Assembly (NCBI GenBank): GCA_014237925.1 | Contig: JABACB010000006.1 | Location: forward strand, 1 to 62,448 | Source: Alphaproteobacteria bacterium | GTDB lineage: Bacteria; Pseudomonadota; Alphaproteobacteria; JABAAW01 | DNA: 62,448 nt | Direction of reading: 5' to 3' | Part shown: one piece after another, positions 50-62,251 of the stretch | Numbering within the stretch: position 1 is the stretch's first letter | Layout: each line of letters starts with the position of its first letter | The notes under the pieces: model-generated | Databases searched by the model: none | The model's input: the letters and a program-made list of their open reading frames with translations, nothing else | What the model was told of the DNA's origin: nothing | Made by a program: the position numbers and the translations under genes

Positions 50-190
50 GGAAAACACAGACTGGAAAAAACAGACTGGAAAATATAGACTGGAGAAAAT
101 ATAGACTGGAGAAAATATAGAAAAGAGAAATTGCATACGAAAATTCGCAAGTTCTTGTTTATCCTTGTTTGTCTTTGTTTGTCCTTGTCT
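50..190. repeat. Intergenic degenerate tandem repeats (15-17 bp ggaaaatatagact-type, then 10 bp ttgtttgtcc-type)
   Basis: Visible repeated units in the AT-rich leader upstream of the first glycosyltransferase. Confidence 0.8.
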
Positions 191-309
191 TTCAGCGTTT
201 TCGTGCTTCGTACGGGCTTGAAGCCGCGCCAGTTTGCTTGAATTGCGGATTCTCGTATGTAAGCCCTCAAAAAAGGCTAAAAAAGAATAAACAAAGAATC
301 AACATAGCC

Positions 310-2022
310 ATGAGCACAACACAAAAAAACATAGGCATCGTTCTCTTTTTTCTTGTCGCGCTCAAGGCGAGTGCTCTCGTCGTTGTCTTCTCCGTCTTGC
401 ACCCAGGGTTCTCCTTGGATGCAGCCGAAATACTTTACTGGGCGCAAGAGCTGCAATGGAGCGGGCAAAAACATCCCGCCATGCCAGCGTGGATCCTAAA
501 AGCTTTCTTGTTGTGGTTGCCTAGCACTGCCGCGTCTTACTATCTTGTCGGGCAAGTAACATTGCTTGCAACCTATCTGTTCGTTTGGCTCTTGGCGAAA
601 GAGTTCCTGCAACCCTTCGCCGCGTTGCTCGCAACGCTTGTCCTTGCTTGCGGGCTCTTCTACAGCTTTTACAGTCTCACCTACAACGCCAACACCTTGT
701 CGCTACCGGCGTGGGCTGCCTTCAGCTTTTTTCTGTGGAAAGCGCTCGAAGACGGTAGATGCCGATGGTGGATCGCGCTCGCTTGCGCCGCAGCCTTCGC
801 GTTGCTGACAAAATATGCCGTCGTCTTGTTGTTCGCAGCAGCGGGGGGGGCTGTTCTGATCGTTCCGAAATGGCGCGCTTGTCTCAAAACCTACAAGCCT
901 TATTTGGCAGCGATCGTCGTCTTGCTACTGACGCTCCCCCACTGGCTGTGGGTTGTCGATCACAATTTCATCACCTTCGATTACGCAACAGCGCAGCTCT
1001 CGAAAAACATGCCGACTCTGTTTGCTCCCGCCCTTTATTTTCCGTTGCGATTCACTTTCGGACAGATCGTCAATATGCTTCCGGTGCTGTTGTGTCTCGC
1101 GGTCTTCTTCGTGCCGAAGCATAAAAAGACGAAGCGTACAAAGACGAAGCGTAGAAGGGGCTCGCGCCTTCAAGCGCTAGATGTGTCTTCCTGCTACAAC
1201 AAGAAAGTCTTTCTGTTGACCATGGGACTGATCCCTTGTTTTGTGACCGTTGTGTTGTCGATGGTTTTGCAGAAGTATGTGCATAGCTTGTGGGGATTGT
1301 TCTATTGGAACTTGACGGGGATCGCCTTCTTTTATTTCTTGAGAGAGAGGATCACACAAGAGGTGATTGCGAGAAGGGTTCGCCTTTTTTTTGTCGTTTG
1401 GACGCTTCTTGTTGTTCTGACGACCGTCGGTTTTTTGCTGCTGCCTTTCGCTACGAGTTCTAGCAAGGTATGGGTGTTTGAGAGTCCGTACCAGGGACAG
1501 AGAAGAGTCGGCGTGGGTTTTGAAGAGGGTGGAAATGAGCAGGCGAAGCGAGCGACTTCCAAGGAACGCGATTTTGTTCTTGATCTTAATCCCAGCTATC
1601 GTCCTTTCTTCGATGTCGATGTTGTCGTGCGGACGATTGCCGAAGGATGGCGTAGGGAGCGATCGTCGACTTTGTCGGTGATCGGCAGCGAGCAGTGGCT
1701 TGCGAGCAGCGTGTCTTTTTTCTCGCCGTCGCGTTTTTCGATCGTCGCGCTGTTTGACGCACACAGGACGGCGTGGCTGGCGCACAATCGAGAGCAGTGG
1801 AACGAAGAGGGGGGAGTTGTTTTGTGGGTGGCGCACGATGACACGCCTTATATGCCGCGTCGGTATCGACGGGCTTTGAGCGACCGTCCCTATGCTTTGC
1901 AGCCCTCGTTTTCTGTGCCGTGGCGAAAAATCTTGGGCTTGGAGGCGAGCATCGTGCGCGGACTTCCTGCGTCTACGATAGGTTGGGCGATCGTGCCGCC
2001 GTTGCCAAAAAAGAGTGAGTGA
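310..2022 (+). CDS. Integral-membrane GT-C glycosyltransferase (GT39/ArnT/RgtA-like), copy 1
   Basis: DAAE..YW.QE..W...KHP motif, YNAN and LLTKY motifs, many TM helices; ATG 310 preferred over TTG 169, which lies in repeats. Confidence 0.85.
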   Translation: MSTTQKNIGIVLFFLVALKASALVVVFSVLHPGFSLDAAEILYWAQELQWSGQKHPAMPAWILKAFLLWLPSTAASYYLVGQVTLLATYLFVWLLAKEFLQPFAALLATLVLACGLFYSFYSLTYNANTLSLPAWAAFSFFLWKALEDGRCRWWIALACAAAFALLTKYAVVLLFAAAGGAVLIVPKWRACLKTYKPYLAAIVVLLLTLPHWLWVVDHNFITFDYATAQLSKNMPTLFAPALYFPLRFTFGQIVNMLPVLLCLAVFFVPKHKKTKRTKTKRRRGSRLQALDVSSCYNKKVFLLTMGLIPCFVTVVLSMVLQKYVHSLWGLFYWNLTGIAFFYFLRERITQEVIARRVRLFFVVWTLLVVLTTVGFLLLPFATSSSKVWVFESPYQGQRRVGVGFEEGGNEQAKRATSKERDFVLDLNPSYRPFFDVDVVVRTIAEGWRRERSSTLSVIGSEQWLASSVSFFSPSRFSIVALFDAHRTAWLAHNREQWNEEGGVVLWVAHDDTPYMPRRYRRALSDRPYALQPSFSVPWRKILGLEASIVRGLPASTIGWAIVPPLPKKSE

Positions 2023-2043
2023 GAGCTATCGCAACAAGGCCAT

Positions 2044-2103
2044 GACACGTGCGTTGTGGACACGTGCGTTGTGGACAGGCGCGTTGTGGACATGCGCGTT
2101 GTG
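2044..2103. repeat. 15 bp tandem repeat x4 (gacacgtgcgttgtg)
   Basis: Directly visible between the two glycosyltransferase paralogs. Confidence 0.9.
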
Positions 2104-2154
2104 GGCTTGTGTTGCGTTGCTGCTGACATCTTGCGCGGGCGAGGCAATCTGACG

Positions 2155-3879: not shown

Positions 3880-4885
3880 CGGGGCGGCGAGGGCGAGGGG
3901 AGAGGAGGGTGAGGGTTTGCGCGTCGGGGCATCGTTGAGAAGGCGTTTGGCGTTGCGCGAGCGTATCGTTTCGCGGCGTGTGCGACGGGGCAGGGATGCG
4001 GAGTTTCTTTTTCGCCATGCGGGCGAGTTGTTGGCGGACAAGTGGCTTGATTTGAAGCGGCCTGTCGAGCGTGTTGTGGCGCTCACGCCGCGCGACGGCG
4101 CTTTGTTGCAGGCTTTGGCGGAGGGGGGAGCTTTGCAGCGCATGGGTCAATTGACGCTGTGCGAGCCCTCGCGGCGTTTGGCGATGTTGTTGGAACAAAA
4201 CGCGGTGCGGCTTGTGCCGCGGGAGTTGCGTTCTCGGTTGCGCGTCAAGGTTTCTTTGGAGGACGAGGTTGAGCTGTTCGATGCGGCGCTGTCTTTCTTT
4301 TCGTTGCATTGGGAGCAGGACTTGTCGCGGTCTTTGACGACACTGGCGGCTTTGCTGAAGGCGGACGCACCTTTCTACGCTGTTGCGTTCGGCGAGGGGA
4401 CGCTCGGTGTTTTGGCGCAAACCTTGTTGAAAGCCGAATCGCGCTTGCGGCATCGTGTTTGCATGCGCGTGCCTAGTTTTCCTTCGCTGGAGCGTGCGGG
4501 CAATGCCATGCGCGACTTGCCTTTTATGCACCAGCCTTTTGTCGAAAGTTTTTGTGTCGAGGCGGACTACGAGAACCTGTGGGATTTGCTGAGCGACGTG
4601 CAGGCGATGGGAGAATCGGGGGCGCTCGCCGAGACGACGCCTTTGTCGAGGGAGGTGGTGGCGCTAGCGGACGCGCTGTATCCTCGTTCTAGGGGGCGAT
4701 TGTTGGCAGAGTTCCATGCGCTCGTGCTGCACGGCTGGACGGCATCGGCTCCTTCATCTTCGTCCTCCGCATCTTCGTCCTCAGCGTCTTCGTCCTCGGC
4801 GTCTTCGTCCTCAGCGTCTTCGTCCCCGGCGTCTTCGTCCTCGGCGCACAAGGGAGGAGACAAGCGTCGGGAAGGCGAGCGTTAG
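3872..4885 (+). CDS. Diverged SAM-dependent methyltransferase-like protein (BioC/NDUFAF5-like) with Ser-rich tail
   Basis: FLF..(A)..L.D, FD...S..SLHW..DL, FG..TL..L and L..D...MGE motifs typical of the family; start uncertain. Confidence 0.7.
   Translation: MSDGAARARGEEGEGLRVGASLRRRLALRERIVSRRVRRGRDAEFLFRHAGELLADKWLDLKRPVERVVALTPRDGALLQALAEGGALQRMGQLTLCEPSRRLAMLLEQNAVRLVPRELRSRLRVKVSLEDEVELFDAALSFFSLHWEQDLSRSLTTLAALLKADAPFYAVAFGEGTLGVLAQTLLKAESRLRHRVCMRVPSFPSLERAGNAMRDLPFMHQPFVESFCVEADYENLWDLLSDVQAMGESGALAETTPLSREVVALADALYPRSRGRLLAEFHALVLHGWTASAPSSSSSASSSSASSSSASSSSASSSPASSSSAHKGGDKRREGER
4757..4846. repeat. 15 bp tandem repeat x6 encoding (SSSSA)n
   Basis: tcttcgtcctc(a/g/c)gcg units in frame at the 3' end of the methyltransferase. 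Confidence 0.95.
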
Positions 4886-6433: not shown

Positions 6434-6744
6434 CTATAACACGAACCAGATTGAAAGTAAAGTCTCAACCCAGCTGGTTTTCTTGGCGCGTCTGTTGCGC
6501 GAGCGCGTGCTTGTCAAGAAGCACAAGCGTGCGCGTAACAGAGATGTCACAGACGGACAAATCTATCCCAACCTCCTCTCTATCCCAACCTTCTCCTGCC
6601 TTCTGCCAATCCTCTCGTCCTGTCATGCGCAAAATCGTCGCCTCTGTGACGCGAGCCAGCTTGAAAGTAAAGTCTCAACCCAGCTGGTTTTCTTGGTCGT
6701 CTGTTGCGCGAGCGCGTGCTCGTTGCGCGCAACAGACATGTCAG
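6434..6744. repeat. Diverged direct repeat pair (6434-6548 and 6644-6744), each containing a hairpin
   Basis: ttgaaagtaaagtctcaacccagctggttttcttgg is identical at 6451 and 6661; both copies carry a tctgttgcgcg...cgcg(c/t)aacaga stem. Confidence 0.9.
6555..6640 (-). pseudogene. Duplicated fragment of the rsmA 3' region
   Basis: Translates TILRMTGREDWQKAGE...GIDLS versus TILRMAGREDWRKAGEDAGIDLS in RsmA (6926-6996). Confidence 0.85.
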
Positions 6745-6856
6745 TAGAACTTCGCATCGCTCATCGATGCTTCGCACTATTGTTTGTTCATTTTTTTGCG
6801 CCCATCTTTTTGCGCCTATTTTTTTCCACCCCCACCCATTTCTTACTGCTCTTGTC

Positions 6857-7744
6857 TTACTGCTCTTGTTTTGCTGCTTTTGCCCAGCGTAGCCACTCTT
6901 CTCCCCTCGCCTCCCCCGCCCGTCTGGACAAATCTATCCCAGCGTCCTCCCCCGCCTTCCGCCAATCTTCTCGCCCCGCCATACGCAAAATCGTCGACAT
7001 CTTCTTCCTGCGATACGAAAACAATAGCCCCGTCATCTCCGCCACAAGGGCATACTCCTCGCTGGTCGCCGTGTGTTCTCGCTCTCCGCGAGGAAAGAAT
7101 CGCACCACACACGAAACAACCTTAGGCACAGGAACAAAAGAAGACGGCGCAACATCAAAACATCGCTCGACACGAGACCGCAACCCCACCAACACCGAAA
7201 GCCTCCCGTAAGCGGCATCGCCGACCTCCGCCGTGATACGCTCGGCAACCTCGCGCTGAAACATCAACACCATCACCTTATGGCGACCTTCCCCCTCGCG
7301 CTCTAGCAACCTTCGCAAAATCACCGTACCTACGCTGTACGGCAGGTTGCCTACAATAACCGCGTCGTCTTCGCCGTCTCTTTTTTGAAGGATTTTTCCA
7401 TAATCCATCGTTCTCGCATCTCCCTCCACCACCTCCAATTCCCTTCCCTCGCTTAGCCCCTCGCTCCATCGTCTTAAGAAATCCGCTAGCCTTGCTTCCG
7501 CCTCGATGGCAACGATCCGCCTAGCTCCCTGGTGAAACAGCGCGCGCGTCAAAGCCCCTGCGCCTGCGCCAATCTCCACCACCGGCGACGAAGAAAGCCC
7601 CCCCCCGACATCACAACTTTGGGCAATACGCCTCGCGCAATCCGCATCTCTCAAGAAGTTCTGTCCGCGACTCTTCTGTCTGGCGCTCGCTTGCAACAAG
7701 CCGGCAGAGCGCAGCAGAGCCTGCATGTCCTCGTTCTCCTTCAA
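6857..7744 (-). CDS. rsmA: 16S rRNA m6,2A dimethyltransferase
   Basis: GQNFL, VEIGAGAGALT, GNLPY, MFQREVAERI and YGRLSV motifs; follows pdxA. Confidence 0.95.
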   Translation of the reverse strand: MKENEDMQALLRSAGLLQASARQKSRGQNFLRDADCARRIAQSCDVGGGLSSSPVVEIGAGAGALTRALFHQGARRIVAIEAEARLADFLRRWSEGLSEGRELEVVEGDARTMDYGKILQKRDGEDDAVIVGNLPYSVGTVILRRLLEREGEGRHKVMVLMFQREVAERITAEVGDAAYGRLSVLVGLRSRVERCFDVAPSSFVPVPKVVSCVVRFFPRGEREHTATSEEYALVAEMTGLLFSYRRKKMSTILRMAGREDWRKAGEDAGIDLSRRAGEARGEEWLRWAKAAKQEQ

Positions 7745-7792: not shown

Positions 7793-8950
7793 TCACGCGG
7801 CTTGTTTCGGGTTGTGCGAGCTTGTCCTCTTGTCGTCCCCCCCTTGTCGCCCCCTTGTCGTCTCTTTTGTCGTCTCTTTTGTAATTTCTTTTGTAATTTT
7901 TTGGGTCGTCCTTTCGCGCCTCGTCTTCGCTATCCGCCACGCCATCGCCAAAGCAGCGGTAAGGCTGCCCGCATCGGCAATCCCTCGTCCGACAATGTCG
8001 CGTGCCGTACCATGGTCGGGCGAACAGCGCACGATCGGCAACCCCAGCGTGATGTTGACCGCTTGTTGATTCGACAGCAGCTTCAAGGGAATCAAACCCT
8101 GGTCGTGATACAAGGTCAAAGCGCAGTCGAAAGTCTTGCGCAGGCGGGGCAGGAAAAGGCTGTCCGAAGGATGCGGTCCTGTCGTGGCGATCCCCTCCTT
8201 GCACAAGCGAGCAACGGCGGGTTGTAGAATTGTCTTCTCCTCGTCGCCGCACGCTCCGCCCTCTCCCGCGTGAGGGTTCAACCCCGCGACCGCCAGCCGA
8301 GGTTGCTGGATGCCGAAATCTTCCTTCAACGCTCTGTGAGCCATGCGCGCAGCCTCCAGCACGCTCGTCTTGTCCAGCATCGCCACCGCGTGTCGCAGCG
8401 CGACATGCCGCGTGACAGGCAAGGTGCGCAGCCCGCGCCACGCGAGCAGCATTCCGTATCGCTCGACCCCCAAGGCTGTGGCGATGTATTCCGTATGTCC
8501 CCAAAGGACATGCTCGTCGTGGGAGAGAGCCGAAGGATTTCGAGGCTGTTCGGAAAAAATCTCCTTTTCGACAGGAAGCGTGACGACCCCGCAAGCCTTC
8601 CCCTCGGCGCACAAGCGCACGGCTGCATCGATCGACGCACGCGCTGCTAGCCCCTCGTCCAACAAGGGCAGGGCGAGCGGGAAGTGCGCGCGCGCCTCCT
8701 CGACCCCCGACACTCTGCGACAAGGTATAGAGAAAGCTTCGAAGTCTTCTTTGCGTCCGCCGAGCGACAGGAAGCAAGGCGATTCTTTGCCGCCCTTGCC
8801 CTGATGTCGCTGCGCCCAAAAGCGCCATGCCTTAGAAAGAACCTCCGCACCGATGCTTTCACGGCTACCCGCGGTGACGACCAACGGAGGCTGAGGTGCA
8901 TCAGGAGATAATCCGCAAGGAAACTGGGAAGATGATTCGGAAGATAGCAT
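7793..8950 (-). CDS. pdxA: 4-hydroxythreonine-4-phosphate dehydrogenase
   Basis: GHTEY, GLNPHAGEGG, YHDQGLIPLK and N.TLGLP..R.SPDHGTA motifs. Confidence 0.96.
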   Translation of the reverse strand: MLSSESSSQFPCGLSPDAPQPPLVVTAGSRESIGAEVLSKAWRFWAQRHQGKGGKESPCFLSLGGRKEDFEAFSIPCRRVSGVEEARAHFPLALPLLDEGLAARASIDAAVRLCAEGKACGVVTLPVEKEIFSEQPRNPSALSHDEHVLWGHTEYIATALGVERYGMLLAWRGLRTLPVTRHVALRHAVAMLDKTSVLEAARMAHRALKEDFGIQQPRLAVAGLNPHAGEGGACGDEEKTILQPAVARLCKEGIATTGPHPSDSLFLPRLRKTFDCALTLYHDQGLIPLKLLSNQQAVNITLGLPIVRCSPDHGTARDIVGRGIADAGSLTAALAMAWRIAKTRRERTTQKITKEITKETTKETTRGRQGGDDKRTSSHNPKQAA

Positions 8951-15169: not shown

Positions 15170-15270
15170 AGCGCAAGAGATAGGCACAAGAGATAGGCAC
15201 AAGAAATATCAGGCAAGAAATAATGACAAGAGATAACGACAAGAGGTAACGACAAGAGATAATGACAAGA
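15170..15270. repeat. Degenerate ~12 bp tandem array (acaagagataat/agg-type)
   Basis: Visible in the lptF/tRNA-Thr spacer. Confidence 0.8.
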
Positions 15271-15371
15271 AACGGGGGGAAAGTTTGCTAGCATGGGTTT
15301 TTTGTGCGCGGGTTTGCCAACCGCAGTCTGCCGAACGCAGTCTGCTGAACGCAGTCTGTCGAACGTAGTTT

Positions 15372-15443
15372 GCCGAAGTAGCTCAGGGGTAGAGCAACTG
15401 ATTCGTAATCAGTAGGCCGGGAGTTCGAATCTCCCCTTCGGCA
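15372..15443 (+). tRNA. tRNA-Thr(CGT), no encoded CCA
   Basis: Acceptor gccgaag/cttcggc; anticodon stem actga/tcagt with loop ttCGTaa; T-loop gttcgaat. Confidence 0.95.
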
Positions 15444-21254: not shown

Positions 21255-21312
21255 TACTCCTTGTTGACAACCCCCGCTGACAGCCCCCGCTGACAACCCC
21301 CGCTGACAACCC

Positions 21313-44951: not shown

Positions 44952-46329
44952 GAGCTCTTGTCAGCTTCAAGCTTTCGCGCACCTTGGCAAGCGCGTTCTC
45001 CAGAGGCAGCGTTTGTTTTTTGTTGCCGTCGCGCCGTTTCAGCTCGACGCTGTCTTTGGGGTTCTTGTCGCCGACGACAATCTGCCACGGCACGCCTACC
45101 AAGTCCATCTCGGCGAACTTCACGCCCGCGCGCACATCGAGACGGTCGTCGTAGAGCGTCTCGATACCCTCGCGGCACAGCCCTTCGTAGAGCGCTTCTG
45201 CCTCCTGCCTCCCTTTCTCGTCCAAAGCGAGCGAGACCAAGCCTACGGAGAAAGGCGCGATAGAATCGTGCCAGACGATGCCGTTCGCGTCGTGCGAGGA
45301 CTCGATGGCAGCGGCGACCAGCCGCGAGATGCCGACCCCATACGAGCCCATGGCAACGGGGACGCTGCCGCCTTGTCGAGTTGCAACGCTAGCCTCCAGC
45401 GGACGCGAGTACTTGTCGGCGAAGAAGAAGACATGTCCAACCTCGATGCCTCTGGTCGAAACCCTGCGCGCTGCGGGAACCTCCGCAGCGAAGCGCTCGG
45501 CATCGTGTTCTTCGTCGGTGGCAGCATAGCAGGAGGTGGCGCGCGCGAAGGCGTCGGCGTGCGCCTTGGCATCATTGCCCTTGTCGTCATTGCCCTTGGC
45601 ATCATTGCCCTTGTCGTCCTGCCACTTTTGTTCCAATAGCGTGCTGTCGCAATAGACGGCGCTCTCGCCCGTGTCCGCCAAGACGACGAACTCGTGGCTG
45701 TTGTTGCCGCCGATCGGTCCGGTCTCGGCGCGCATCGGCACCGCCGTCATTCCCATGCGCTCGAAGGTACGCAGGTAGGAGACCGCCATCGCTCGATACG
45801 AAGCCATCCCCTGCTCCTCGTCCGCGTCGAAAGAATAGGCATCCTTCATGTAGAACTCGCGCGCGCGCATGACCCCGAAGCGAGGACGAATCTCGTCGCG
45901 GAACTTCCACTGGATGTGATACAGACGGCACGGAAGATCCTTGTAGCTCTTCGTCGTCTCAGCGAACAGCTGCGTGATCGCCTCTTCGTTCGTAGGACCG
46001 TACAGCAGGGGGGCGTCGTGGCGATCGGTGATGCGTAGCATTTCTTTGCCGTAGTCGTCGTAGCGTCCCGACTTCTTCCACAGCTCCGCCGACTGAATCG
46101 TCGGCATCAGGCACTCGTGCGCACCGATGCGGTCTTGCTCGGCGCGCACGATCACTTCGATCTTCTTCATGACGCGAAAGCCCAGCGGCAGCCAGTTGTA
46201 GAGCCCTGCGCTCGCTTGGCGAATCATTCCGGCGCGCAACATCAGACGATGCGAGACGACCGAGGCTTCGGCAGGCTCTTCGCGCAGCGTCGGCAGAAAG
46301 TACCGCGAGCGGCGGACACCGATTTTCAT
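44932..46329 (-). CDS. proS: Prolyl-tRNA synthetase (short alphaproteobacterial type)
   Basis: SH.LMLRAGMI, GPTNEE, KFRDE.RPRFG.MR.REF, GIEVGH and MGSYG.G motifs. Confidence 0.97.
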   Translation of the reverse strand: MKIGVRRSRYFLPTLREEPAEASVVSHRLMLRAGMIRQASAGLYNWLPLGFRVMKKIEVIVRAEQDRIGAHECLMPTIQSAELWKKSGRYDDYGKEMLRITDRHDAPLLYGPTNEEAITQLFAETTKSYKDLPCRLYHIQWKFRDEIRPRFGVMRAREFYMKDAYSFDADEEQGMASYRAMAVSYLRTFERMGMTAVPMRAETGPIGGNNSHEFVVLADTGESAVYCDSTLLEQKWQDDKGNDAKGNDDKGNDAKAHADAFARATSCYAATDEEHDAERFAAEVPAARRVSTRGIEVGHVFFFADKYSRPLEASVATRQGGSVPVAMGSYGVGISRLVAAAIESSHDANGIVWHDSIAPFSVGLVSLALDEKGRQEAEALYEGLCREGIETLYDDRLDVRAGVKFAEMDLVGVPWQIVVGDKNPKDSVELKRRDGNKKQTLPLENALAKVRESLKLTRAHDPVFD

Positions 46330-46467
46330 GGCGGAAAATCTCGTGGAAGAGCTTGTGGATCGCAACCCCCACTCTAGCACAAGGCGAGCGCCGAGACAAA
46401 CAACCCTCGCGTGTCAAAATTGTCAAAAAAAGATCGCACCGCGTTCGTTTTTGGTTATGCTTCGCCA

Positions 46468-46523
46468 GCAAGGACAACGAAGCAAGGACAACGAAGCAAG
46501 GACAACGAAGCAAGGACAACGAA
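46468..46523. repeat. 14 bp tandem repeat x4 (gcaaggacaacgaa)
   Basis: Perfect units just upstream of ATG 46540. Confidence 0.95.
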
Positions 46524-46539
46524 GAGAGGAAAAGAAGCG

Positions 46540-50836: not shown

Positions 50837-50964
50837 CGAGAACTGAGCTGTCTGACGAGAACCGCAGAGCGCATCACTCGTCAGATTTTGCCGTCAGATT
50901 TTGCCGTGGGCTCTTGTCTTCATGTCTCTTGTCTTCATGTCTCTTGTCTTCATGTCTCTTGTCT

Positions 50965-53556
50965 TTAGGTTTTTTCTTCGTCTTCCGCAAGAGGAGGGGG
51001 GGTGATCACAGAGGAAGTTTCGCTCGATTCTGTCGTCGCCTCTTCTGTTGTCGTCTCTCTTGTCGTCGCTTCTTCTGCGGTCTCTGTTGACGCTGCGGAG
51101 GGGGAAAAGAAGTTCTCGGCTCCGACGAGCGTGTTTGTCGCTTCATCGTTCTCTTGGTCTGCTTCTTGTGCGGTCTCCTTGATTTCCTCTTCTAGGCTTG
51201 CAGGAGCGGGGGAGGAGGGGAGAGGGTAGCCTGTCTCAAAGGTTGCGTGCGCTGTCTCCGCCACTTCGTCGAGCTTCGCGCTTTGTTCTTTCAGCTTGGC
51301 GATCTTCTCTTGCAACGACGCTTGTCCTTGCTCGGCGGCGGCGGCGAGCGAGACGATGCCATCGTCCGAAAAGGGAGCAGAAGAGGGATCAGAAGCGATG
51401 CCAGAAACGATTCCCTCGTCTCCTATTTCTGCGTCTCCTATTTCTGCGTCTCCTATTTCTGCGTCTCCTATTTTTGCATCTCCCATCGTTTCGGTCATGA
51501 TTTCTGTCTCTGTCTTCTCGTCTTCCCACGCCATCGGCGCACGATCCATCGGCGCACGATCGAAGGGGGAGGGGGACAAGGGATCGTCCGCCAGCGCAGA
51601 GGAGGGAGCGGTCGCAGGCTTTTCGAGCGTCTCGTCGAGTTGCGCCGTCTGTTCTTTGAGCTTGGCGATCTTTTTCTCCAGCGAATCTTCCTCCGCCGTC
51701 AGCGCCGCCACGGCGGGCATCTCAGGCATGGAGGAAAGAATTGGAGGAAGGGGGGCGGCGGAGAAGGGCGACTCTGAGCTTGCCTCCGCCAATGCTTGCC
51801 CTTGTCTTTCCTCCTGCGTCTCCGCTTGCGCCTCTGCTTGCATCTCTGCTTGCGCCTCTGCTTGCGTCTCTGCTTGCGTCTCTGCTTGCGTCTCTGCTTG
51901 CGTCTCTGCTTGCATCTCTTGCTCCCCCAAGCCGTTCCTCCCTTCTTCTGTCGGGGCTTCTGTTGCAGCGCTGCTCGTCTCCGTTGCGCTTTGTTCCGAA
52001 AGTGCATCTTTTTGAGGCACTTCTTCCTGGAGCGTTGTCGGCGCAACGGCGGCGGTCGTCGCAGCGGCTGCAGTGGCTGTGCCGCCTCCCTCTTCGCTCG
52101 GCACTGCCGCATCCGAATCGAGAGACTCTTTCAAGCGCGCAACGACGATGCTCTCCAGCGCATCCACATCGGCAGGGATCGTCTCAAACGCCTCCGCCCT
52201 CGTCTCCAGCTCGGCAAGCCTCAAGGGAATGTGCGGTCTCGTGCCGATGGCGCGCTCTAGCGTCTCAGGAAACTTCGCCGCAGAGGCGGTCGCAAAGACA
52301 ACGGTGCTACAATCGTGCGCCGTGCGTTTGTTCGCGTTGCCGCTTGAGCCGCTGCGTGCGTCTTTGGCAGCGTTGAGCGCGATGGCAGAATGCGGATCAA
52401 GAGGCTCGCCTACGCTGTTGTAGGCTTGGCTCATGGCTTCGAGAATCTGCTCGTCGTCGAAACGTTGCGTGCGGAAAAATCGAAAGATCTCCGAGCGCAT
52501 CGCACCCTTCGGCACGCGGAGCGTCCCGCTTTCTTCCGCCTGCTCGCGCATCTTTTTCCATTTGCGCACGCTCTCATTGAGGCTACGGAAGAGCAGTCGC
52601 TCGATGTTGTTCGGCGTCATAATGTCGATGCTGGGGGCGAGGCTAGGCACGACCTCACCGCTTGCCGCCGAGCCGTGTTGAAAGAGGTTATGCAGGAAAT
52701 CGTTGTGGCTAACAGCGAGCGTCAGCCCTTCGATGTTCGCGCCCAATTTCTTCGCAACATAGCCGGCATAGGCGTTGCCGAAGTTGCCGCAGGCGAGCGC
52801 GAAGCGCACCGATTGGGTACGGGGAATCCGTTGCGCCGCGTAGAGGTAGACGGCGCTTTGGACGGCGATACGAATCCAGTTGAACGAGTTGACCGAAGAA
52901 ATCTGTCCGCGTGCTTGAATCGCTTCCGATTGCGCAACCGCCTTGACCAAACGCAGACAATCGTCGTAGCTGCCTTCGACGGCGATGTTGCAGATGTGCG
53001 GCGCTTGGACGCAAGTCATCTGCTTGCGTTGCAGGGCGGAGATGCGGTCTTTCGGATGCAGCATGAACAGTCGAACGCCGCGAACGGATTTCAGCGCCTC
53101 GATGGCAGCTGAGCCCGTATCGCCTGAAGTTGCGCCGATCATGATCAGCAGACGCTTCCTCTCTGTCGCAAGGGCTTCGAGAAGCTGTCCGTAGAACTGC
53201 AGCGGGATGTCCTTGAAGGAGAGCGTCGGTCCGTGAAAAAGCTCGAGCAACCAAAGGTTGCGCTCCACCTCGCGCAAAGGAACGACGGCGCGGCTGTGGA
53301 AAGGTTCGAAGGCTTTGTGAGCAATCTTCGTGAAATCAAGATGCGGCAGAACGCGTCGTCCGGCGAAAAGCCCCACCACAGCTCCTACGATCTGCGGGAA
53401 AGTAGGGTTCTTGGCAAGGAAGTCGCGCAAACGACGCTTGCGCGGCCAGCTCGTAGGCTCGTACAGACCGCCGTCAGCCGCAAGCCCGCCGCTGAAAATA
53501 TCCGCAAATGTCCGCTTCTCGCCCCCGCGAGTCGATCGGTAGTGCATGGTGTTCAT
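50965..53556 (-). CDS. thrC: Threonine synthase with ~390 aa acidic low-complexity C-terminal extension
   Basis: Y.STRG, GLA.DGGLY, ELFHGPTLSFKD (PLP lysine), ATSGDTGSAA, Q..QM, GNFGN and DPH.A motifs. Confidence 0.92.
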   Translation of the reverse strand: MNTMHYRSTRGGEKRTFADIFSGGLAADGGLYEPTSWPRKRRLRDFLAKNPTFPQIVGAVVGLFAGRRVLPHLDFTKIAHKAFEPFHSRAVVPLREVERNLWLLELFHGPTLSFKDIPLQFYGQLLEALATERKRLLIMIGATSGDTGSAAIEALKSVRGVRLFMLHPKDRISALQRKQMTCVQAPHICNIAVEGSYDDCLRLVKAVAQSEAIQARGQISSVNSFNWIRIAVQSAVYLYAAQRIPRTQSVRFALACGNFGNAYAGYVAKKLGANIEGLTLAVSHNDFLHNLFQHGSAASGEVVPSLAPSIDIMTPNNIERLLFRSLNESVRKWKKMREQAEESGTLRVPKGAMRSEIFRFFRTQRFDDEQILEAMSQAYNSVGEPLDPHSAIALNAAKDARSGSSGNANKRTAHDCSTVVFATASAAKFPETLERAIGTRPHIPLRLAELETRAEAFETIPADVDALESIVVARLKESLDSDAAVPSEEGGGTATAAAATTAAVAPTTLQEEVPQKDALSEQSATETSSAATEAPTEEGRNGLGEQEMQAETQAETQAETQAETQAEAQAEMQAEAQAETQEERQGQALAEASSESPFSAAPLPPILSSMPEMPAVAALTAEEDSLEKKIAKLKEQTAQLDETLEKPATAPSSALADDPLSPSPFDRAPMDRAPMAWEDEKTETEIMTETMGDAKIGDAEIGDAEIGDAEIGDEGIVSGIASDPSSAPFSDDGIVSLAAAAEQGQASLQEKIAKLKEQSAKLDEVAETAHATFETGYPLPSSPAPASLEEEIKETAQEADQENDEATNTLVGAENFFSPSAASTETAEEATTRETTTEEATTESSETSSVITPPPLAEDEEKT
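51418..51485. repeat. 15 bp tandem repeat encoding (GDAEI)n
   Basis: In frame in the ThrC tail. Confidence 0.9.
51815..51918. repeat. 12 bp tandem repeat x8 encoding (QAET)n
   Basis: In frame in the ThrC tail. Confidence 0.95.
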
Positions 53557-53575: not shown

Positions 53576-54757
53576 TCAAAGTGCTCGCTCGAGGTCGCTC
53601 GCTTCAGGATGCTCCGCTTGGCTCACGCCGCTGCTCGCAGCAAGGTTTGCAGCAAGGTTTGCACCTCTGTTAGCACCTCTCGCGTTCGCTCCTCCGACTT
53701 GTCCTTTTGTCTGTCCGTCCTCTTGCATTCTACCTTTTTGCATGGCGCGACGCAACACCAGCAAATCGTGCCACGCCGCAGCCTTCTTTGCAGGCGTGCG
53801 CAAAAGATAAGAAGGGTGGAACGAAGGCAGAGCGGTTGTAGGGATGCCTGCCAGCGTGATCGGAAAGAATTGTCCGCGCAACTTCGTGATTCCTCTTCGT
53901 TCGCCCAAGACATTTTGCATCGCAACATTGCCGAGCAAAAAAAGCCAGCGTGGTTTCACAAGCGCCATGTGGCGCAGAAAGAAGGGATAGCAGACGGCGA
54001 TCTCGTCGCTGTCCGGCTGACGATTGCCCGGCGGTCGCCAGTAGACCAAATTGGTGATGCGATACTGCTCGCGGCTTTCGATGCCGATCGTGCTTAGCAT
54101 ACGAGCAAGCAGCAGCCCGCTTTCGCCGACGAAGGGTTTTCCTTGTTCGTCTTCCGCGCGCCCAGGCGCTTCGCCGACGATCACGAGCTCTGCTTCAGGA
54201 TTTCCTTCGGCGAAGACGGTGTTGCGCGCAGCTTTTTTCAACGGACAGAGATCGAAGGATCGGATCGCTTGCTCGAGCTCTTCGAGCGTGTCGCACGACG
54301 AGGCGACCTTGCGCGCCTCCACGACAGCATCAACGGGCGCAAGCAACGAGGGTTTACTCTGCGAGGGTTTACTCTGCGAGGGTTTCCTCTGCGTTGCCAC
54401 AGCTTCTGACATCATCCTTGGCATATCTCTTGGCATAGCCCTTGGCGCAACGCCCTCTGCGAGATTGGGCGGCGGCGAAGTTTGAGACAGCGAGGTTTGA
54501 GACAGCGAGGCTGGAGAAGAGAGAGAGTCCAGCACGCTGCGCACAAGGCTTTCCGCTTGAACCCATCCCTGCGTCTCCCCTTGTCTTTTCCCCTGTCTTT
54601 CCCCTTGTTCCTGCGCGCCATCGCTTGCAAGCCAGCCGTCGCATCCCGCCTCATACTGCCATTCGAGGCAGGCAAGAAGGATCGCGCGCTCTTCCGCCGT
54701 GTTCGCCCCCGCGTTCGCCCCCGTGTTCGCCCCCGCGTTCGCCCCCGTGTTCGCCAT
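53576..54757 (-). CDS. Uracil-DNA glycosylase, family 4
   Basis: GEAPG..ED..G.PFVG.SG.LL, N...WRPPGNR.P and HPSYLLR motifs; alphaproteobacterial L.W....G.D N-terminus; ATG 54757. Confidence 0.92.
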   Translation of the reverse strand: MANTGANAGANTGANAGANTAEERAILLACLEWQYEAGCDGWLASDGAQEQGERQGKRQGETQGWVQAESLVRSVLDSLSSPASLSQTSLSQTSPPPNLAEGVAPRAMPRDMPRMMSEAVATQRKPSQSKPSQSKPSLLAPVDAVVEARKVASSCDTLEELEQAIRSFDLCPLKKAARNTVFAEGNPEAELVIVGEAPGRAEDEQGKPFVGESGLLLARMLSTIGIESREQYRITNLVYWRPPGNRQPDSDEIAVCYPFFLRHMALVKPRWLFLLGNVAMQNVLGERRGITKLRGQFFPITLAGIPTTALPSFHPSYLLRTPAKKAAAWHDLLVLRRAMQKGRMQEDGQTKGQVGGANARGANRGANLAANLAASSGVSQAEHPEASDLERAL

Positions 54758-57108: not shown

Positions 57109-58224
57109 ATGTTTCTTCTATTGCGTTTCTTCTTGGGATGGATCTTCCGCTTGGCACTCATCGCGCTCGTGTGCCTCGTCCTTGTGCAGAAAGCCTTCGG
57201 CACCTCGCGCATCAAAGACATCACCGACTTTGAAGGCGTGCGCGACAACATGCTCGTCGGATACGGAATCGCCGTCGGACTCAACGGCACAGGCGACACC
57301 CTGCAAGACTCGGTCTTCACACGCGAGAGCCTGCTCGGCATGCTCGAAAGACTCGGCGTGAATGCTCGCGACACAAACCTGCGCACCGACAATGTCGCCG
57401 CCGTCATGGTCACCGCAACGCTCTCGCCGTTTGCAAGACAAGGCTCGCGCCTCGATGTCACCGTCTCCGCGCTGGGAGACGCAACCTCCTTGCAAGGAGG
57501 CACTCTGCTCGTCACTCCCCTCATCGGCGCGGACGGAGAGGTCTACGCCGTAGCGCAAGGCAGGGTAGGAATCGGCGCGGTCAGCCGACAGGACGCGCTC
57601 AGACAAGGGCGCAATCAGCGCGGCGTTTCCACCAGCGGGCGCATCGCCGACGGCGGAATCGTCGAGCGTGAAGTCGCCTTCGACCTGAACGCGCGCCAAA
57701 ACCTGAAGCTGGCACTACGACAGCCCGATTTCACAACCGCCAGCAGAATCGCCGCTGCAATCAACGGCTTCGTCGGAGACGAGATCGCGCGTGCCATCGA
57801 TCCAGGAACAGTCGATTTGTTCATTCTCTCGCAGGAACGCGGTAGCGCCGTTTCGCTGATCGCCGATATCGAACAGCTGCGCGTTAGCACCGACCAACCC
57901 GCCAAGGTCGTCATCGACGAACATTCGGGCGTCATCGTCATGGGCGAGGATGTCGCCATCGAGGAGGTCGCCATCGCGCACGGAAATCTGACCATAAGAG
58001 TCAGCGCAGAAGTCGAAGAAAATCCCTTCGGCAACGCTGATGCAGAAGCCGTCATTCAACAAACCGCAGACGGCAACACCATAGCTCTCTTGCCGCGCAG
58101 CGTGCCCTTGCGAAGACTCGTCGAAGGACTCAACCGACTGGGAACGACACCGCGCGACCTCATCGAGATTTTGCAAACGATCAAAGCCGCAGGCGCGCTG
58201 AAAGCAGACCTGGTCGTGCTGTAA
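57109..58224 (+). CDS. flgI: Flagellar P-ring protein
   Basis: RIKDI...GVRDN.L.GYG..VGL.GTGD, NVAAVMVTA, SLQGGTLL and PDFTTA motifs. Confidence 0.97.
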   Translation: MFLLLRFFLGWIFRLALIALVCLVLVQKAFGTSRIKDITDFEGVRDNMLVGYGIAVGLNGTGDTLQDSVFTRESLLGMLERLGVNARDTNLRTDNVAAVMVTATLSPFARQGSRLDVTVSALGDATSLQGGTLLVTPLIGADGEVYAVAQGRVGIGAVSRQDALRQGRNQRGVSTSGRIADGGIVEREVAFDLNARQNLKLALRQPDFTTASRIAAAINGFVGDEIARAIDPGTVDLFILSQERGSAVSLIADIEQLRVSTDQPAKVVIDEHSGVIVMGEDVAIEEVAIAHGNLTIRVSAEVEENPFGNADAEAVIQQTADGNTIALLPRSVPLRRLVEGLNRLGTTPRDLIEILQTIKAAGALKADLVVL

Positions 58225-58266: not shown

Positions 58267-58695
58267 ATGGACATCGCCACAAGACCCGACCTCCTCCCCT
58301 TGCTTTCGCCGCCCTCTCCGCCTGCGCTCGAGCGTGCGCTCGATGGGGCGAAGCAGAGCGATCACAAGCAACAGGCAAGGGTCGCCGCAGAAAAATTCGA
58401 GGCGTTCTTCTTGCGCACCGTCCTGGAAGACATGATCCCGGAACCCAAAGAAGACGCTTTCGGCGGAGGCAGCAACGCAGAAAAACTTTGGAACTCCATG
58501 CTCCACGAGCAATACGCCGAGATCCTGGCGCGGCGCGGCGGAATCGGCATCGCCGACCTCGTCTATCGACAGCTCCTGACGCTGCAAGAAGCAGGTCAAG
58601 AAGCAGCCCAAGAATCAGATCAAGAAGCGCCCCAAGAATCAGATCAAGCAACACCGAGCCTCCACCCTTCCGCCCTTGAGGAGCAAGCACGATGA
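58267..58695 (+). CDS. flgJ: Rod-binding (FlgJ N-terminal-like) protein
   Basis: A..FEA.FL..., FGGG..E..W.SML...YA..LA..GGIGIA motif. Confidence 0.85.
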   Translation: MDIATRPDLLPLLSPPSPPALERALDGAKQSDHKQQARVAAEKFEAFFLRTVLEDMIPEPKEDAFGGGSNAEKLWNSMLHEQYAEILARRGGIGIADLVYRQLLTLQEAGQEAAQESDQEAPQESDQATPSLHPSALEEQAR

Positions 58696-60887: not shown

Positions 60888-61106
60888 CACACCAATAGGG
60901 GACAACCTTCATTGACGAAAGGGCGTTGCCGCGCCGATGAGGAGAGAGAGCCGTCTTGCTCGTCTTGTAAAAAACGAGACGAGAGACAAGAGACGAGCGG
61001 TAGATAGCGTAACCGAGTGTCACGAGCGAGCGTAGATCGAGCGTAGATTTAGAGCGAGTCTCTTTTTATCGCCCTCCCAAGCCGCCTTCCCTGAAGCAGT
61101 CTTCCC

Positions 61107-62147
61107 ATGTCCCCCCTCCGCCCGCTCATCCTCTTCGGTCCCACCGCCAGCGGCAAATCGCGCCTTGCCCTCGCCCTCGCCCGAGCCCTCGCACACACCA
61201 CCACAACCCACATCGTCAATTGCGACTCGCTCCAACTCTACACACACTTGCCCATCCTCACCGCCCAACCCTCTGCTGCCGACCAAGCCGAAACGCCCCA
61301 CCACCTCTACGCCGTCGCCCATCCCTCTGAACGACTCTCGGCAGGGTTGTACGCAGAGAAAGCAACAGACCTGCTCCAACACCTCCAGCGCGATCACCCC
61401 TCCGATGCCGTCATCTTGTGCGGCGGCTCAGGACTCTATCTTAAGGCGCTGCTCGAAGGCTTGACCGAACTCCCACAACCCTCGCGCCGAGCCACACAAA
61501 AAATCCGCCGATGGCAGAAAGAACAGCGCGACCTCTATACGCTCCTACAACAACGCGACCCCGCAACCGCCGCCGCTCTCGCGCCACAAGACAAACATCG
61601 CATCGTGCGCGCGCTCGAATTCTACGAAACCTGCGGCGCGTCGCTCTTCGATGCTCGCAAGGGCGTCAAGCAATCCTCCCCCTTCGCGCAACAAGAAGAG
61701 CGACAGCCCTTGCTGATCTCGCTCACCCCCTGTCGAAAAATCTTGTACGCAGCGATCAACGCGCGCTTCGAACGCATGCTCCAACAAGGTGCCATCGAAG
61801 AGGTGCGCGCTCTCGAGGCAGAGAACGCCTTGCCTTGCGAAAGCCCCTTGCCTTGCGAAAGCCCCTTGCCTTGCGAAAGCCCTTTGCGTAGCGCGTTGGG
61901 CTTGAAAGAGATCGAAGCCTATTGCAGAGGAGAATCGTCCTGGCAAGCGATGGTCGAACGAGGACAGCAGAGGGTGAGAAATTACGCCAAAAGGCAGCTG
62001 ACTTGGATCCGCCACCAACTGCCTGGCAAGGCGTTGCTGCTGCAACGCCAGCTGACAGAATCGGTCGAAGAGGATTGCAACGGGGTTTGCCACGCGGTCG
62101 GGCAAGCTTGGAGCAAAGCTTCTTGCGCCGACAAGCCGTTCGTGTAG
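61107..62147 (+). CDS. miaA: tRNA dimethylallyltransferase
   Basis: GPTASGKS, N.DS.Q.Y..L.ILTA.P, PHHL, GG.GLY and R.YAKRQ.TW motifs. Confidence 0.96.
   Translation: MSPLRPLILFGPTASGKSRLALALARALAHTTTTHIVNCDSLQLYTHLPILTAQPSAADQAETPHHLYAVAHPSERLSAGLYAEKATDLLQHLQRDHPSDAVILCGGSGLYLKALLEGLTELPQPSRRATQKIRRWQKEQRDLYTLLQQRDPATAAALAPQDKHRIVRALEFYETCGASLFDARKGVKQSSPFAQQEERQPLLISLTPCRKILYAAINARFERMLQQGAIEEVRALEAENALPCESPLPCESPLPCESPLRSALGLKEIEAYCRGESSWQAMVERGQQRVRNYAKRQLTWIRHQLPGKALLLQRQLTESVEEDCNGVCHAVGQAWSKASCADKPFV
61828..61881. repeat. 18 bp tandem repeat x3 encoding LPCESP
   Basis: In frame within miaA. Confidence 0.95.
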
Positions 62148-62251
62148 AATAAGACTTTGCAGAATAGACTTTGCAGAATAGCCTTTGCAGAATAGCCCTG
62201 CAAAACAACCCTGCGAAACAACCCTCCTTGCTTTCTTCCGCGCTCCTTTCC

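Follow-up and report, generated by a model that had tools for sequence, protein, structure and literature searches.

Pervasive tandem repeats in spacers and housekeeping genes of an alphaproteobacterial chromosome, probably born in place by short local duplications

Pervasive tandem repeats with virtually unique units have been described for the Borg elements of Methanoperedens (Schoelmerich et al., 2023, PMC9879509). In these elements, all repeat units inside open reading frames (ORFs) have a length divisible by three, compared with 14-38% of the intergenic ones (PMC9879509). Short tandem duplications arising at microhomology, denoted microhomology-mediated tandem duplications (MTDs), were found across 103 species; 25-30% of them lack a microhomology arm and about 50% possess one of more than 3 bp (PMC13167724). 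Caulobacter, an alphaproteobacterium, is named in the MTD work as the high-MTD bacterium among those tested, and in yeast, deletion of rad27 results in 7-10 fold more tandem duplications (PMC13167724). For Ehrlichia ruminantium, active expansion and contraction of noncoding tandem repeats was reported in an AT-rich genome with about 64% coding density (PMC10710844). The present work concerns a contig of 62,448 bp (the window; JABACB010000006.1, contig C376 of assembly G000) from an alphaproteobacterium, which is densely occupied by short tandem repeat arrays with locus-specific units, located in spacers as well as inside housekeeping genes. These minisatellites are probably born locally, by duplication of short stretches of the resident sequence.

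A literature search, with most subscription journals outside its reach, retrieved neither a report of a comparable pattern from an alphaproteobacterial symbiont or metagenome-assembled genome nor one from a prokaryote survey; the GenomeCompendium preprint considers only repeats of 500 bp or more. Assembly G000 comprises 1.97 Mb in 409 contigs with 56% GC and is estimated to be 86% complete with 3% contamination.

Array load and reading-frame bias

Arrays were called with Tandem Repeats Finder (TRF) at a score of at least 50, and overlapping rows were merged into non-redundant arrays. The window harbors 62 of these, approximately one per kb (164 TRF rows at a score of at least 30), with periods of 12 bp (n=20), 15 bp (n=14), 14 bp (n=8), 13 bp (n=6), and other lengths (n=14). 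Chance is ruled out as their source, because 20 dinucleotide-preserving shuffles of the window yielded 0-2 TRF rows each, 0.3 on average. A sequence-only reading of the window had estimated 40 or more arrays, mostly of 12 or 15 bp, and had postulated a process acting genome-wide. The count turned out to be too low, and the genome-wide extent is confirmed: the whole of G000 contains 1523 non-redundant arrays (772/Mb, 6.55% of bases), mostly 30-100 bp long, and every large contig carries 0.3-1.3 arrays per kb.

A class of 221 arrays on 97 contigs, with periods of 27, 54, 81, 108 or 162 bp, was set apart. The consensus units of the 27/54 bp class encode G/D-rich nonapeptides, e.g. G-D-D-T-L-D-G-G-D, which by consensus reading fit what we take to be the RTX (calcium-binding) motif GGxGxD. 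These arrays thus appear to be RTX-type protein repeats, separate from the minisatellite process; they are mostly found on small contigs and on C11 (about 800-17,600), none of them inside the window. A large share of the small fragmented contigs seem to be pieces of giant genes for RTX-type repeat proteins. On contigs of 3 kb or more (1.65 Mb), the non-RTX set consists of 1162 arrays, 205 of which show a match of at least 99%. Genes on these contigs were called with a custom codon log-odds caller, giving 1252 genes that cover 85.6% of the bases; at least one non-RTX array is present in 490 of them.

Genomes were compared by the number of perfect duplications (at least two copies, unit of 11-16 bp), which chance barely yields; TRF densities rank the genomes in the same way. 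G000 (contigs of at least 3 kb) reaches 431 such duplications per Mb. Members of the same genus show 76/Mb (G003, one contig, 460 kb sample), 146/Mb (G004, 123 kb), 125/Mb (G006, 40 kb), and 17/Mb (G001, 60 kb), and members of the same order 100/Mb (G007, 100 kb), 17/Mb (G009, 60 kb), and 0/Mb (G008 and G010, 40 and 17 kb). Eleven class-level Alphaproteobacteria together have 5.6/Mb (356 kb), Spirochaete and other polA loci 29/Mb (863 kb), and metagenome polA loci 21/Mb (477 kb). The duplication load in G000 is roughly 80 times that of other Alphaproteobacteria, in agreement with the earlier remark that the pattern is not typical of chromosomes of this class; the excess holds against the relatives as well. 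The genus, and perhaps a part of the order, thus shows the trait at an elevated level, with the G000 species as an extreme case. If the criterion used for Borgs is applied (a region of at least 50 nt with at least three units and no mismatch), G000 has 77 regions (39/Mb), compared with 1 in 460 kb of G003, 0 in 123 kb of G004, and about 2-5.2/Mb in the controls. Most G000 arrays are imperfect, with 77 of the 1523 TRF arrays passing this criterion.

The unit lengths that occur differ between genes and spacers. Among the non-RTX arrays that lie fully inside called genes, the period is divisible by three in 519 of 562 (92%), in contrast to 201 of 431 (47%) in spacers (Fisher p = 4e-60); at gene edges the figure is 103 of 169. 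In the hand-curated window, divisibility by three was found for 34/34 arrays in genes vs 6/17 in spacers, the latter being chance level. The genome-wide spacer figure of 47% is inflated because the caller missed genes: udg and acpS of the window hold five arrays mislabelled as intergenic, all five divisible by three. Conversely, it assigned one 14 bp array of the window to an ORF, although this array precedes the portion shared with relatives. In real spacers, periods of 12-15 bp are about equally frequent; spacer arrays as called with periods of 11 to 16 bp number 30, 86, 59, 67, 78, and 22. All 18 window arrays with a period that is not a multiple of three are located in spacers or at ORF edges. 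The bias between coding and intergenic periods for which the sequence-only reading had proposed a check is therefore strong. In the window, units inside coding sequences (CDS) are multiples of three, as that reading had stated, and units of 10, 14, and 17 bp occur only in spacers or at ORF edges; its view that selection filters the arrays to protein termini and loops is supported, the cases inspected being termini, linkers, and variable loops.

Arrays are also less frequent in genes (0.40/kb) than in spacers (1.82/kb), and no stop codon is present in any of the 519 in-frame arrays. The repeat peptides are 1.3-1.8 fold richer in Q, S, N, K, D, E, P, G, and T and poorer in W, Y, M, F, L, C, I, R, and V; on their coding strand, the arrays are T-poor and contain 28.6% A, vs 21.2% in all CDS. 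Judged by amino acid composition and position, the encoded repeat segments would be disordered.

The frame bias also bears on the question whether the arrays are real. G000 is a fragmented, incomplete assembly with some contamination, and repeats are known to disturb assemblies (PMC9879509), which might point to an artefact of assembly or sequencing. Such an artefact would be blind to the reading frame, yet 92% vs 47% of the periods are divisible by three; moreover, the arrays are short (see above), similar ones exist in one-contig and four-contig assemblies of sister species, and the window sequence is present in sequencing runs of two studies (8 runs), comprising organism-labelled runs and marine metagenomes. 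Equally, a dispersed mobile repeat family (REP/MITE-like elements or iterons) would not produce units that are all different, with single-copy progenitors in relatives. An artefact or a mobile family is accordingly highly improbable. An array lies within 60 bp of 85 of the 818 contig ends, no clear excess over the base coverage of 6.6%. Alternative haplotypes would appear as small contigs that match a large one at 95% or more over at least 300 bp; among 348 small contigs there was none. No near-identical strain was found in metagenome contigs, where the best polA match is 39% identical, and G002, a same-genus genome considered as a possible closer relative, is also only about 79-86% identical.

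Two observations concern the composition of the bin. A second, partial polA (C359:3361-5289 and C215:1-614), whose protein is 69-77% identical to that of the window polA, indicates that the bin contains fragments of another related organism, in keeping with the contamination estimate of 3%. Of the 115 small contigs with a megablast match in a large contig, 84 match at only 70-85%.

Birth and turnover of the arrays

Related genomes reveal the state of the array sites outside the G000 species. The window is fully syntenic with G003 (53,455 of 62,448 bases align, at 66-84% identity) and also syntenic with G004; the two relatives are 90% identical to each other and share 78-79% identity with the window. 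When 23 kb of the three genomes were aligned, both G003 and G004 showed a gap or a single unit opposite nearly all G000 arrays. At the proS site, for instance, the relatives carry one 15 bp unit, and at the polA N-terminus one or two units. Both flanks could be mapped in G003 for 31 of the 62 window arrays; no copy was present at 21 sites, one at seven, and two or more at three, one of which is a weak conserved flgI repeat and another a low-complexity sequence. Genome-wide, 134 of the 1162 arrays had both flanks in the ~0.44 Mb sample of relatives' sequence. Among 142 array-site pairs in G003, a few of which are counted twice since two sampled loci overlap, 117 lack the unit, 24 have one unit, and 1 has two or more; the median orthologous interval is 20 bp vs 45 bp for the G000 arrays. 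Arrays shared between G003 and G004 differ by whole units (3.4 vs about 1, 2.4 vs 1.4, and 2.7 vs 5.1). Because of the absent or single copies at orthologous sites and of these differences, the arrays are concluded to be born in place from local sequence, to change by whole units, and to turn over faster than species at about 80% identity diverge.

The units themselves are unrelated. Among 1004 arrays with units of 10-21 bp, only five non-neighbouring pairs are identical, some of them segmental duplicates, and the commonest 8-mer is shared by 11 of the 1004 units. A dispersed repeat family (REP/MITE-like, iterons) was rejected, as neither a common consensus nor a flank motif exists; this and the single-copy sites in relatives agree with the earlier view of local duplication rather than a mobile family. 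In a search for a recognition motif, the enrichment of flank k-mers did not exceed 3.5 fold, and no more than 28 of 774 arrays shared such a k-mer; the enriched words are AT-rich and typical of spacers. Inside the units, CAAGA/TCTTG is 3 fold enriched, yet it is present in just 90 of 588; A-rich words are 2-3 fold enriched, and words containing CG are depleted to 0.2-0.45. Spacer units show a purine strand asymmetry in 44% vs 24% of control 12-15-mers, and the orientation of the purine strand relative to flanking genes is weak (68 vs 48 in co-oriented spacers). No replichore pattern was obtained from 20 samples of the complete G003 chromosome, where GC skew was unclear and the arrays per sample too few. 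Phase-variable contingency loci, with units of 1-9 bp, were also dismissed, given that the units here are mostly 12-15 bp, in frame, and located in housekeeping genes. The process had been called sequence-independent; this remains valid in that the units are unrelated and share no motif, and has to be revised in that they are rich in A and purines but poor in CpG, and in that microhomology bounds about one half of the young duplications.

Length and boundaries of the youngest duplications provide hints on their origin. Perfect duplications in G000 with a unit length (L) of 11 to 16 bp number 51, 307, 66, 78, 188, and 20, followed by 68 for all L = 17-30 together; the repeat-poor control sets have the same preference for 12-15 bp, at a low level. 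Microhomology, measured as an arm that forms a partial third copy of the unit, was determined for the 65 strictly isolated cases among 579 perfect two-copy runs with L = 11-16, a case being counted as isolated if the 30 bp of flank contain no further 7-mer of the unit, even with one mismatch. Looser filters were dropped, since they are confounded by longer arrays with variable units. The arm is 0 bp long in 13 cases, 1 bp in 8, 2 bp in 9, and at least 3 bp in 35, compared with an expectation without homology of about 50-56% at 0 bp and about 5% at 3 bp or more. Arms of 3-8 bp are thus present at roughly one in two young duplications. Compound arrays, in which neighbours of different period share a part of the unit, are common (16038/16097, 35028-35163, 19769-19927).

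Taken together, it is likely that the minisatellites are locally born by MTD, expanded by slippage, and filtered by selection. Resident sequence would be duplicated in tandem, in stretches mainly of 11-16 bp and most often of 12-15 bp, largely by misalignment at a microhomology of a few bases during replication or Okazaki-fragment maturation. From two copies on, replication slippage, which we infer to be the expansion engine, may add, remove, and re-phase whole units, giving rise to multi-copy and compound arrays. In spacers, every unit length would survive selection; in genes, only units divisible by three would persist, and the majority of these would add hydrophilic peptides of the disorder type to termini, linkers, and surface loops. 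A link between the 12-15 bp ruler and primer-sized Okazaki flaps is speculation.

The sharp size window (L = 11-16, against the few longer duplications) and the occurrence of the trait along a lineage might instead reflect a dedicated, lineage-specific generator, which makes duplications of unit length without microhomology and leaves only later steps to slippage. Candidates are an altered lagging-strand maturation with primer-sized flaps, or a nuclease or integrase that makes staggered cuts of 12-15 nt which are then filled in. Isolated duplications with 0-2 bp of microhomology (30/65) would suit such a generator. On the other hand, the same preference for 12-15 bp in repeat-poor controls and the missing flank motif speak against it, and so does the gene inventory: Ku and an ATP-dependent ligase for end joining were not found, neither were a reverse transcriptase and a Y-family polymerase in the genus, and the 5' nuclease of Pol I looks intact. 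A generator of this kind is very unlikely.

This inventory was compiled for G000, G003, G004, G007 (same order), and the repeat-poor G023 (same class), following the proposal of the sequence-only reading to list mutS/mutL, recJ, xseA, dnaQ, and Ku/LigD. The standard genes mutS, mutL, recJ, xseA, dnaQ, RNase HI (rnhA), recA, and a uvrD-like helicase gene are present in all five genomes, recJ being full length in the genus and scoring below the curated cut-off. Ku, an ATP-dependent ligase, the C-terminal domain of ExoI, and a true RecQ were not found in any of the five; among them, only G007 has a Y-family polymerase and a reverse transcriptase. Gene loss was rejected as a cause, as the factors absent from G000 are also absent from repeat-poor G023, and the 86%-complete G000 gives the same inventory as the one-contig G003. 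A defective flap nuclease of Pol I was dismissed as well: the acidic residues of the 5' nuclease, aligned to Taq polymerase, are conserved, and these are the residues we take to be catalytic. DnaQ is not truncated, since its C-terminal peptide is kept; its profile match is shorter because of repeats in the linker.

Several repair genes have much longer stop-to-stop frames in G000 than in the outgroups, namely xseA (1034 amino acids (aa) vs 446-543), recJ (781 vs 588-695), and dnaQ (338 vs 239-271); the loci are C33:19611-20909, C333:63859-65568, and C222:100577-101125. Three in-frame arrays lie inside recJ. In G004, contigs C1, C3, and C4 carry three identical-scoring recA matches with neighbouring helicase-like matches, which suggests that the recA-bearing segment is duplicated or was redundantly assembled.

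An excess of duplications can result from a higher input or from a lower output. With normal duplication input, weak removal due to a small effective population or relaxed selection, in a reduced and probably host-associated lineage, would also fill a genome with arrays. The genomes of the genus are small (1.1-1.9 Mb), the window sequence was found in organism-labelled runs as well as in marine metagenomes, many housekeeping reading frames exceed those of outgroups in length, none of the standard repair genes is missing, and tandem duplications are described as largely neutral (PMC13167724). Against this, the 77 perfect arrays of at least three units imply very recent events, with 1 in 460 kb of the similar-size G003, 205 of the 1162 arrays are matched at 99% or more, and the 3-6 fold gap to the sister species (76 and 146/Mb) would require a large difference in population size. 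Weak removal by itself is therefore rather unlikely. An elevated mutation rate rather than only weak purging is inferred, the higher rate being favoured because G000 has many perfect multi-copy arrays compared with sister genomes of similar size.

Some points weigh against local birth by MTD at a raised rate. Microhomology of 0-2 bp in 30 of the 65 isolated duplications leaves room for a second, microhomology-independent route. One genome cannot separate a higher rate from weaker purging, and the inventory of repair and replication genes offers no explanation for the excess. Arrays and copy numbers are those of assembled contigs, the densities of the relatives rest on samples of 9 to 460 kb from genomes that are related and hence not independent, and the gene caller is crude, having missed udg and acpS in the window.

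A more far-reaching proposal, which is possible at best, is that the G000 species is a natural 'hyper-duplicator', in which a heritable change in lagging-strand maturation or in the replisome, or a lineage-specific factor, makes primer-sized duplications of 12-15 nt about two orders of magnitude commoner than in other bacteria. If so, this state would have persisted through speciation in the genus and intensified in the G000 species, and it would have equipped about 40% of the proteins with low-complexity segments, including PolA, DnaX, DnaQ, MutL, and RecJ. G000 would then correspond, on a bacterial chromosome, to the Borg repeat generator, and the sister species would be its low-activity controls. 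In these sisters, 80-90% identical, duplications are 3-6 times fewer, and perfect multi-copy arrays are at least 18 times rarer; owing to this gradient, the determinant should be mappable by comparative genomics and testable via replisome parts in a laboratory host with a duplication reporter.

Arrays and genes along the window

The window, which is syntenic with an alphaproteobacterial genome assembled in one contig of 1.9 Mb, carries bacterial housekeeping genes such as lptD, polA, proS, and dnaX. The eleven gene examples given by the sequence-only reading were all found as placed and read in frame, their identities being confirmed with NCBIfam or Pfam. Most of the named arrays lie outside conserved domains; internal ones are those of AcpS (residues 42-59), MiaA (residue 242), thiolase (residue 90), and LptD (residues 210 and 368). 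Outside the window, arrays also occur in RecJ, in the linkers of DnaQ and MutL, and in the flank 3' of recA.

At the left end, a spacer array (14 bp, 4.6 copies, 49..115) precedes two tandem paralogs of PMT_2 membrane glycosyltransferases (169-2022 and 2056-3879; proteins 55% identical). Both align to one G003 region (L104, about 1578-4109), so that the pair may reflect a species-specific gene duplication or a loss in G003. The first paralog has an array at its 5' edge (10 bp, 3.5 copies, 154..188) and a K/T/R-rich one inside (15 bp, 2.6 copies, 1115..1153, +), the G003 site of which is 3 bp long; a further array spans the spacer and the start of the second paralog (15 bp, 4.1 copies, 2044..2104). 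The C-terminal part of ORF 3848-4885 contains an (SSSSA)n array (15 bp, six copies, 4757..4846, +). Two spacer arrays (17 bp, two copies, 6562..6595; 14 bp, 2.6 copies, 6789..6825) and one at the 3' edge of ORF 6857-7744 (14 bp, three copies, 6841..6882) follow, and the C-terminal tail of PdxA, past the domain end, carries TKE(I/T) repeats (12 bp, 3.3 copies, 7855..7894, -). LptD harbors three arrays on the minus strand: NTTSA (15 bp, 3.3 copies, 11700..11749), DA/DP (6 bp, nine copies, 12169..12222), and one near its N-terminus (12 bp, 3.6 copies, 12761..12803), the first and the last of which are absent at the G003 site.

The next spacers hold arrays of 13 bp (7.4 copies, 15174..15270), of 14 bp (four copies, 15322..15377; 2 bp in G003), and a compound pair, in which a perfect 14 bp array (4.6 copies, 16038..16102) abuts a 12 bp array with 98% match (5.3 copies, 16097..16160), TCTTGG being common to both. 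Inside the thiolase gene, an 18 bp array (2.1 copies, 16495..16532, +) corresponds to a G003 interval of 20 bp, and a 14 bp array (5.1 copies, 17590..17658) lies in the spacer beyond. A carph-isopro domain (NCBIfam NF046037, E = 4e-13) lies at the N-terminus of ORF 19545-21254 (569 aa), and no family match was obtained for the remainder of this protein; its two arrays are a 12 bp compound array encoding TQEG/AQEG (6.2 copies, 19783..19863, +) and a QGDG array (12 bp, 3.5 copies, 20855..20896, +). The latter is absent at the G003 site, as is the following spacer array (13 bp, 3.7 copies, 21265..21312). A DUF4167 protein carries ETSE repeats past its domain (12 bp, 4.2 copies, 22706..22756, -), ORF 27458-28567 two long-unit arrays (39 bp, 2.3 copies, 27893..27982, -; 24 bp, 2.2 copies, 28210..28262, -), and the N-terminal part of ORF 28801-29295 PNKF repeats (12 bp, 4.2 copies, 29205..29254, -). 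The adjacent full-length gene for a trimethylamine methyltransferase of the MttB family (29323-30894, -; Pfam E = 1e-206) is without an array and among the best conserved genes of the window.

A perfect 13 bp array (three copies, 30906..30944) is situated in the spacer at the 5' edge of the degP ORF, and DegP itself has SLFRE repeats before the protease domain (15 bp, 6.6 copies, 31077..31175, +), where G003 has 5 bp. ORF 32780-33319 contains a 27 bp array (2.1 copies, 33181..33238, +). PdxJ carries PGQS repeats N-terminal to its domain (12 bp, 5.3 copies, 33369..33432, +) and a perfect EGDR array in its C-terminal tail (12 bp, 2.6 copies, 34181..34211, +), and the array inside AcpS encodes GRGD (12 bp, 4.6 copies, 34353..34404, +). 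The compound spacer array 35028..35163 is composed of 12 bp (2.8 copies), 18 bp (3.6 copies), and 18 bp (3.1 copies) repeats whose units share AGTAGAT. In DnaX, NKEE repeats lie in the C-terminal part of the ORF (12 bp, 3.1 copies, 35438..35474, -) and DAATSDK repeats in an N-terminal extension before the ATPase domain (21 bp, 3.8 copies, 36655..36734, -).

A 12 bp array (3.8 copies, 37787..37832) extends over the spacer and the 5' edge of a solute-binding protein ORF. Two further spacer arrays are absent in G003 and G004 (16 bp, 4.1 copies, 39511..39575; 6 bp, 10.3 copies, 39608..39669), an ABC permease ORF contains two 12 bp arrays (3.5 copies, 40578..40619, +; 3.3 copies, 40928..40967, +), and the next spacers a 13 bp array (4.8 copies, 41512..41573), for which the relatives have 11 bp, and a 12 bp array (5.3 copies, 42336..42401). 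The ProS array, KGND(A/D) (15 bp, 3.3 copies, 45564..45613, -), falls into a variable loop, as seen by comparison with PDB 2i4l, the solved Rhodopseudomonas enzyme, which has about 10 residues fewer in this stretch; one unit is present in G003 and G004. A perfect 14 bp array (4.1 copies, 46467..46524) in the 5' part of ORF 46411-47934 was read as leader or spacer; the part conserved with G003 starts downstream of it, at 46597.

The N-terminal extension of PolA bears a 12 bp array (2.7 copies, 47991..48023, +), with about two units in G004 and about one in G003, and AQEQK repeats before the 5' nuclease domain (15 bp, 3.5 copies, 48019..48071, +); homology to Taq polymerase starts after this extension, at residue 48. 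A 19 bp array (2.4 copies, 50818..50862) runs across the polA stop codon into the spacer, which also holds two perfect arrays (13 bp, 2.2 copies, 50879..50907; 15 bp, 3.7 copies, 50911..50965).

ThrC has a C-terminal tail of ~400 residues (50965-52255, -) with four arrays: a 15 bp array (3.3 copies, 51028..51077, -), GDAEI (15 bp, 4.5 copies, 51417..51483, -), perfect DRAPM (15 bp, 2.1 copies, 51531..51561, -), and QAET in a linker (12 bp, 8.8 copies, 51815..51919, -). The tail is kept in G003 (813 aa ORF) and G004 (848 aa ORF) and comprises two conserved coiled-coil-like blocks (...SLEKKIAKLKEQTAQLD... and ...SLQEKIAKLKEQS.KLDEV...) plus a GAENFFS block. These blocks are common to the three species, in contrast to the hypervariable linkers with QAET, GDAEI, and DRAPM in G000 and ASVQ-type repeats in G003 and G004; the ASVQ array lies just upstream of the QAET position, within the same linker. 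This shows that the tail linkers are array hot spots, with different arrays per species.

The longest frame of the UDG-family ORF (53576-55399, -) overlaps the upstream aminotransferase gene (54775-55938) in another frame, and translation probably starts at the ATG that directly precedes the ANTG array. A perfect array encoding GAN... is located in the C-terminal tail of UDG (12 bp, 2.2 copies, 53637..53663, -). Its N-terminal extension of ~185 residues consists of five different arrays, among them KPSQS (15 bp, 3.1 copies, 54347..54393, -), SLSQT (15 bp, 2.4 copies, 54475..54510, -), and, directly after the candidate start codon, ANTG/ANAG (12 bp, 4.9 copies, 54697..54755, -). The weak FlgI repeat (15 bp, 2.1 copies, 57945..57976, +), conserved in G003 and G004, is probably old or incidental and not part of the duplication process. 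The tail of a rod-binding protein has three 24 bp units (58585..58655, +), of which the relatives have one, and the array inside MiaA encodes LPCESP (18 bp, 3.3 copies, 61828..61887, +), opposite a G003 interval of 24 bp. The window ends with a 14 bp array in the spacer after miaA (3.5 copies, 62146..62195) and a 13 bp array at the spacer and 5' edge of the next ORF (2.3 copies, 62196..62225).

Significance and comparison with known systems

The birth of repeats and of disordered protein segments has so far been studied in Borgs, whose archaeal hosts are uncultivated, or as rare subclonal events. This marine alphaproteobacterial genome represents a natural bacterial system for the birth of tandem repeats and floppy protein segments. 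On the practical side, gene callers mis-start or miss genes in such genomes, and the arrays can break or collapse assemblies; they would be usable as high-resolution strain markers for the lineage.

In E. ruminantium, as in G000, an alphaproteobacterial chromosome carries many tandem repeats, which expand and contract, and long intergenic regions. The targets there are noncoding, whereas 562 of the 1162 arrays considered here lie inside genes, and the units are 12-15 bp long. In the E. ruminantium studies of Collins et al. and Frutos et al., from 2005 and 2006, the repeat periods are reportedly mostly much longer.

The duplication mutator phenotype of rad27/FEN1 mutants in yeast and the control of tandem repeats by single-strand exonucleases in E. 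coli, reported by the Lovett laboratory, both resemble the present case in short duplications bounded by short direct repeats and in the connection to lagging-strand maturation. Unlike in these two systems, the polA 5' nuclease, recJ, and xseA show no loss or obvious defect here.

The likeness to MTD extends to the boundaries of the duplications, as 20% of the young G000 duplications have no arm and 54% one of at least 3 bp, matching the published profile (PMC13167724). It also includes the path from a single-copy segment via a duplication to an expandable repeat and the depletion in coding sequence (PMC13167724; bioRxiv 10.64898/2026.02.28.708716). In contrast, MTD is described in these texts as universal, of low level and mainly subclonal, while the load in G000 is fixed, about 80 times that of other Alphaproteobacteria, and narrow in unit size; in the 5' nuclease of Pol I, which corresponds to Rad27 in bacteria, the conserved carboxylates show no defect.

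The closest resemblance suggested by the sequence-only reading, that to Borg elements, is supported feature by feature against PMC9879509. Both systems have many head-to-tail arrays with locus-unique units, in-ORF units divisible by three (34/34 in the curated window), an A-rich coding strand, and an enrichment of disorder-promoting residues, and in both the arrays are missing where close relatives can be aligned; further common traits are hot spots, arrays placed N-terminally, and arrays that end in a partial repeat. The fraction of spacer arrays divisible by three in the curated window (6/17) falls within the Borg range of 14-38%, and the Borg density, roughly estimated from 214 amino acid tandem repeats (aaTRs) in ten genomes (PMC9879509) and approximate genome sizes, is of the same order as the 39/Mb of G000. 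The carriers differ: a Borg is a giant linear extrachromosomal element of archaea with about 33% GC, here the arrays reside on a bacterial chromosome of about 2 Mb with 56% GC. Further differences are the units of mostly 12-15 bp and the many imperfect arrays. The chromosome of the Borg host is virtually without repeats (PMC9879509), in contrast to the chromosome and housekeeping genes affected here. By this analogy, G000 appears to work like the Borg repeats without being a member of the Borg system, and Borg-like pervasive minisatellites in a bacterial chromosome and its housekeeping genes are what is new.

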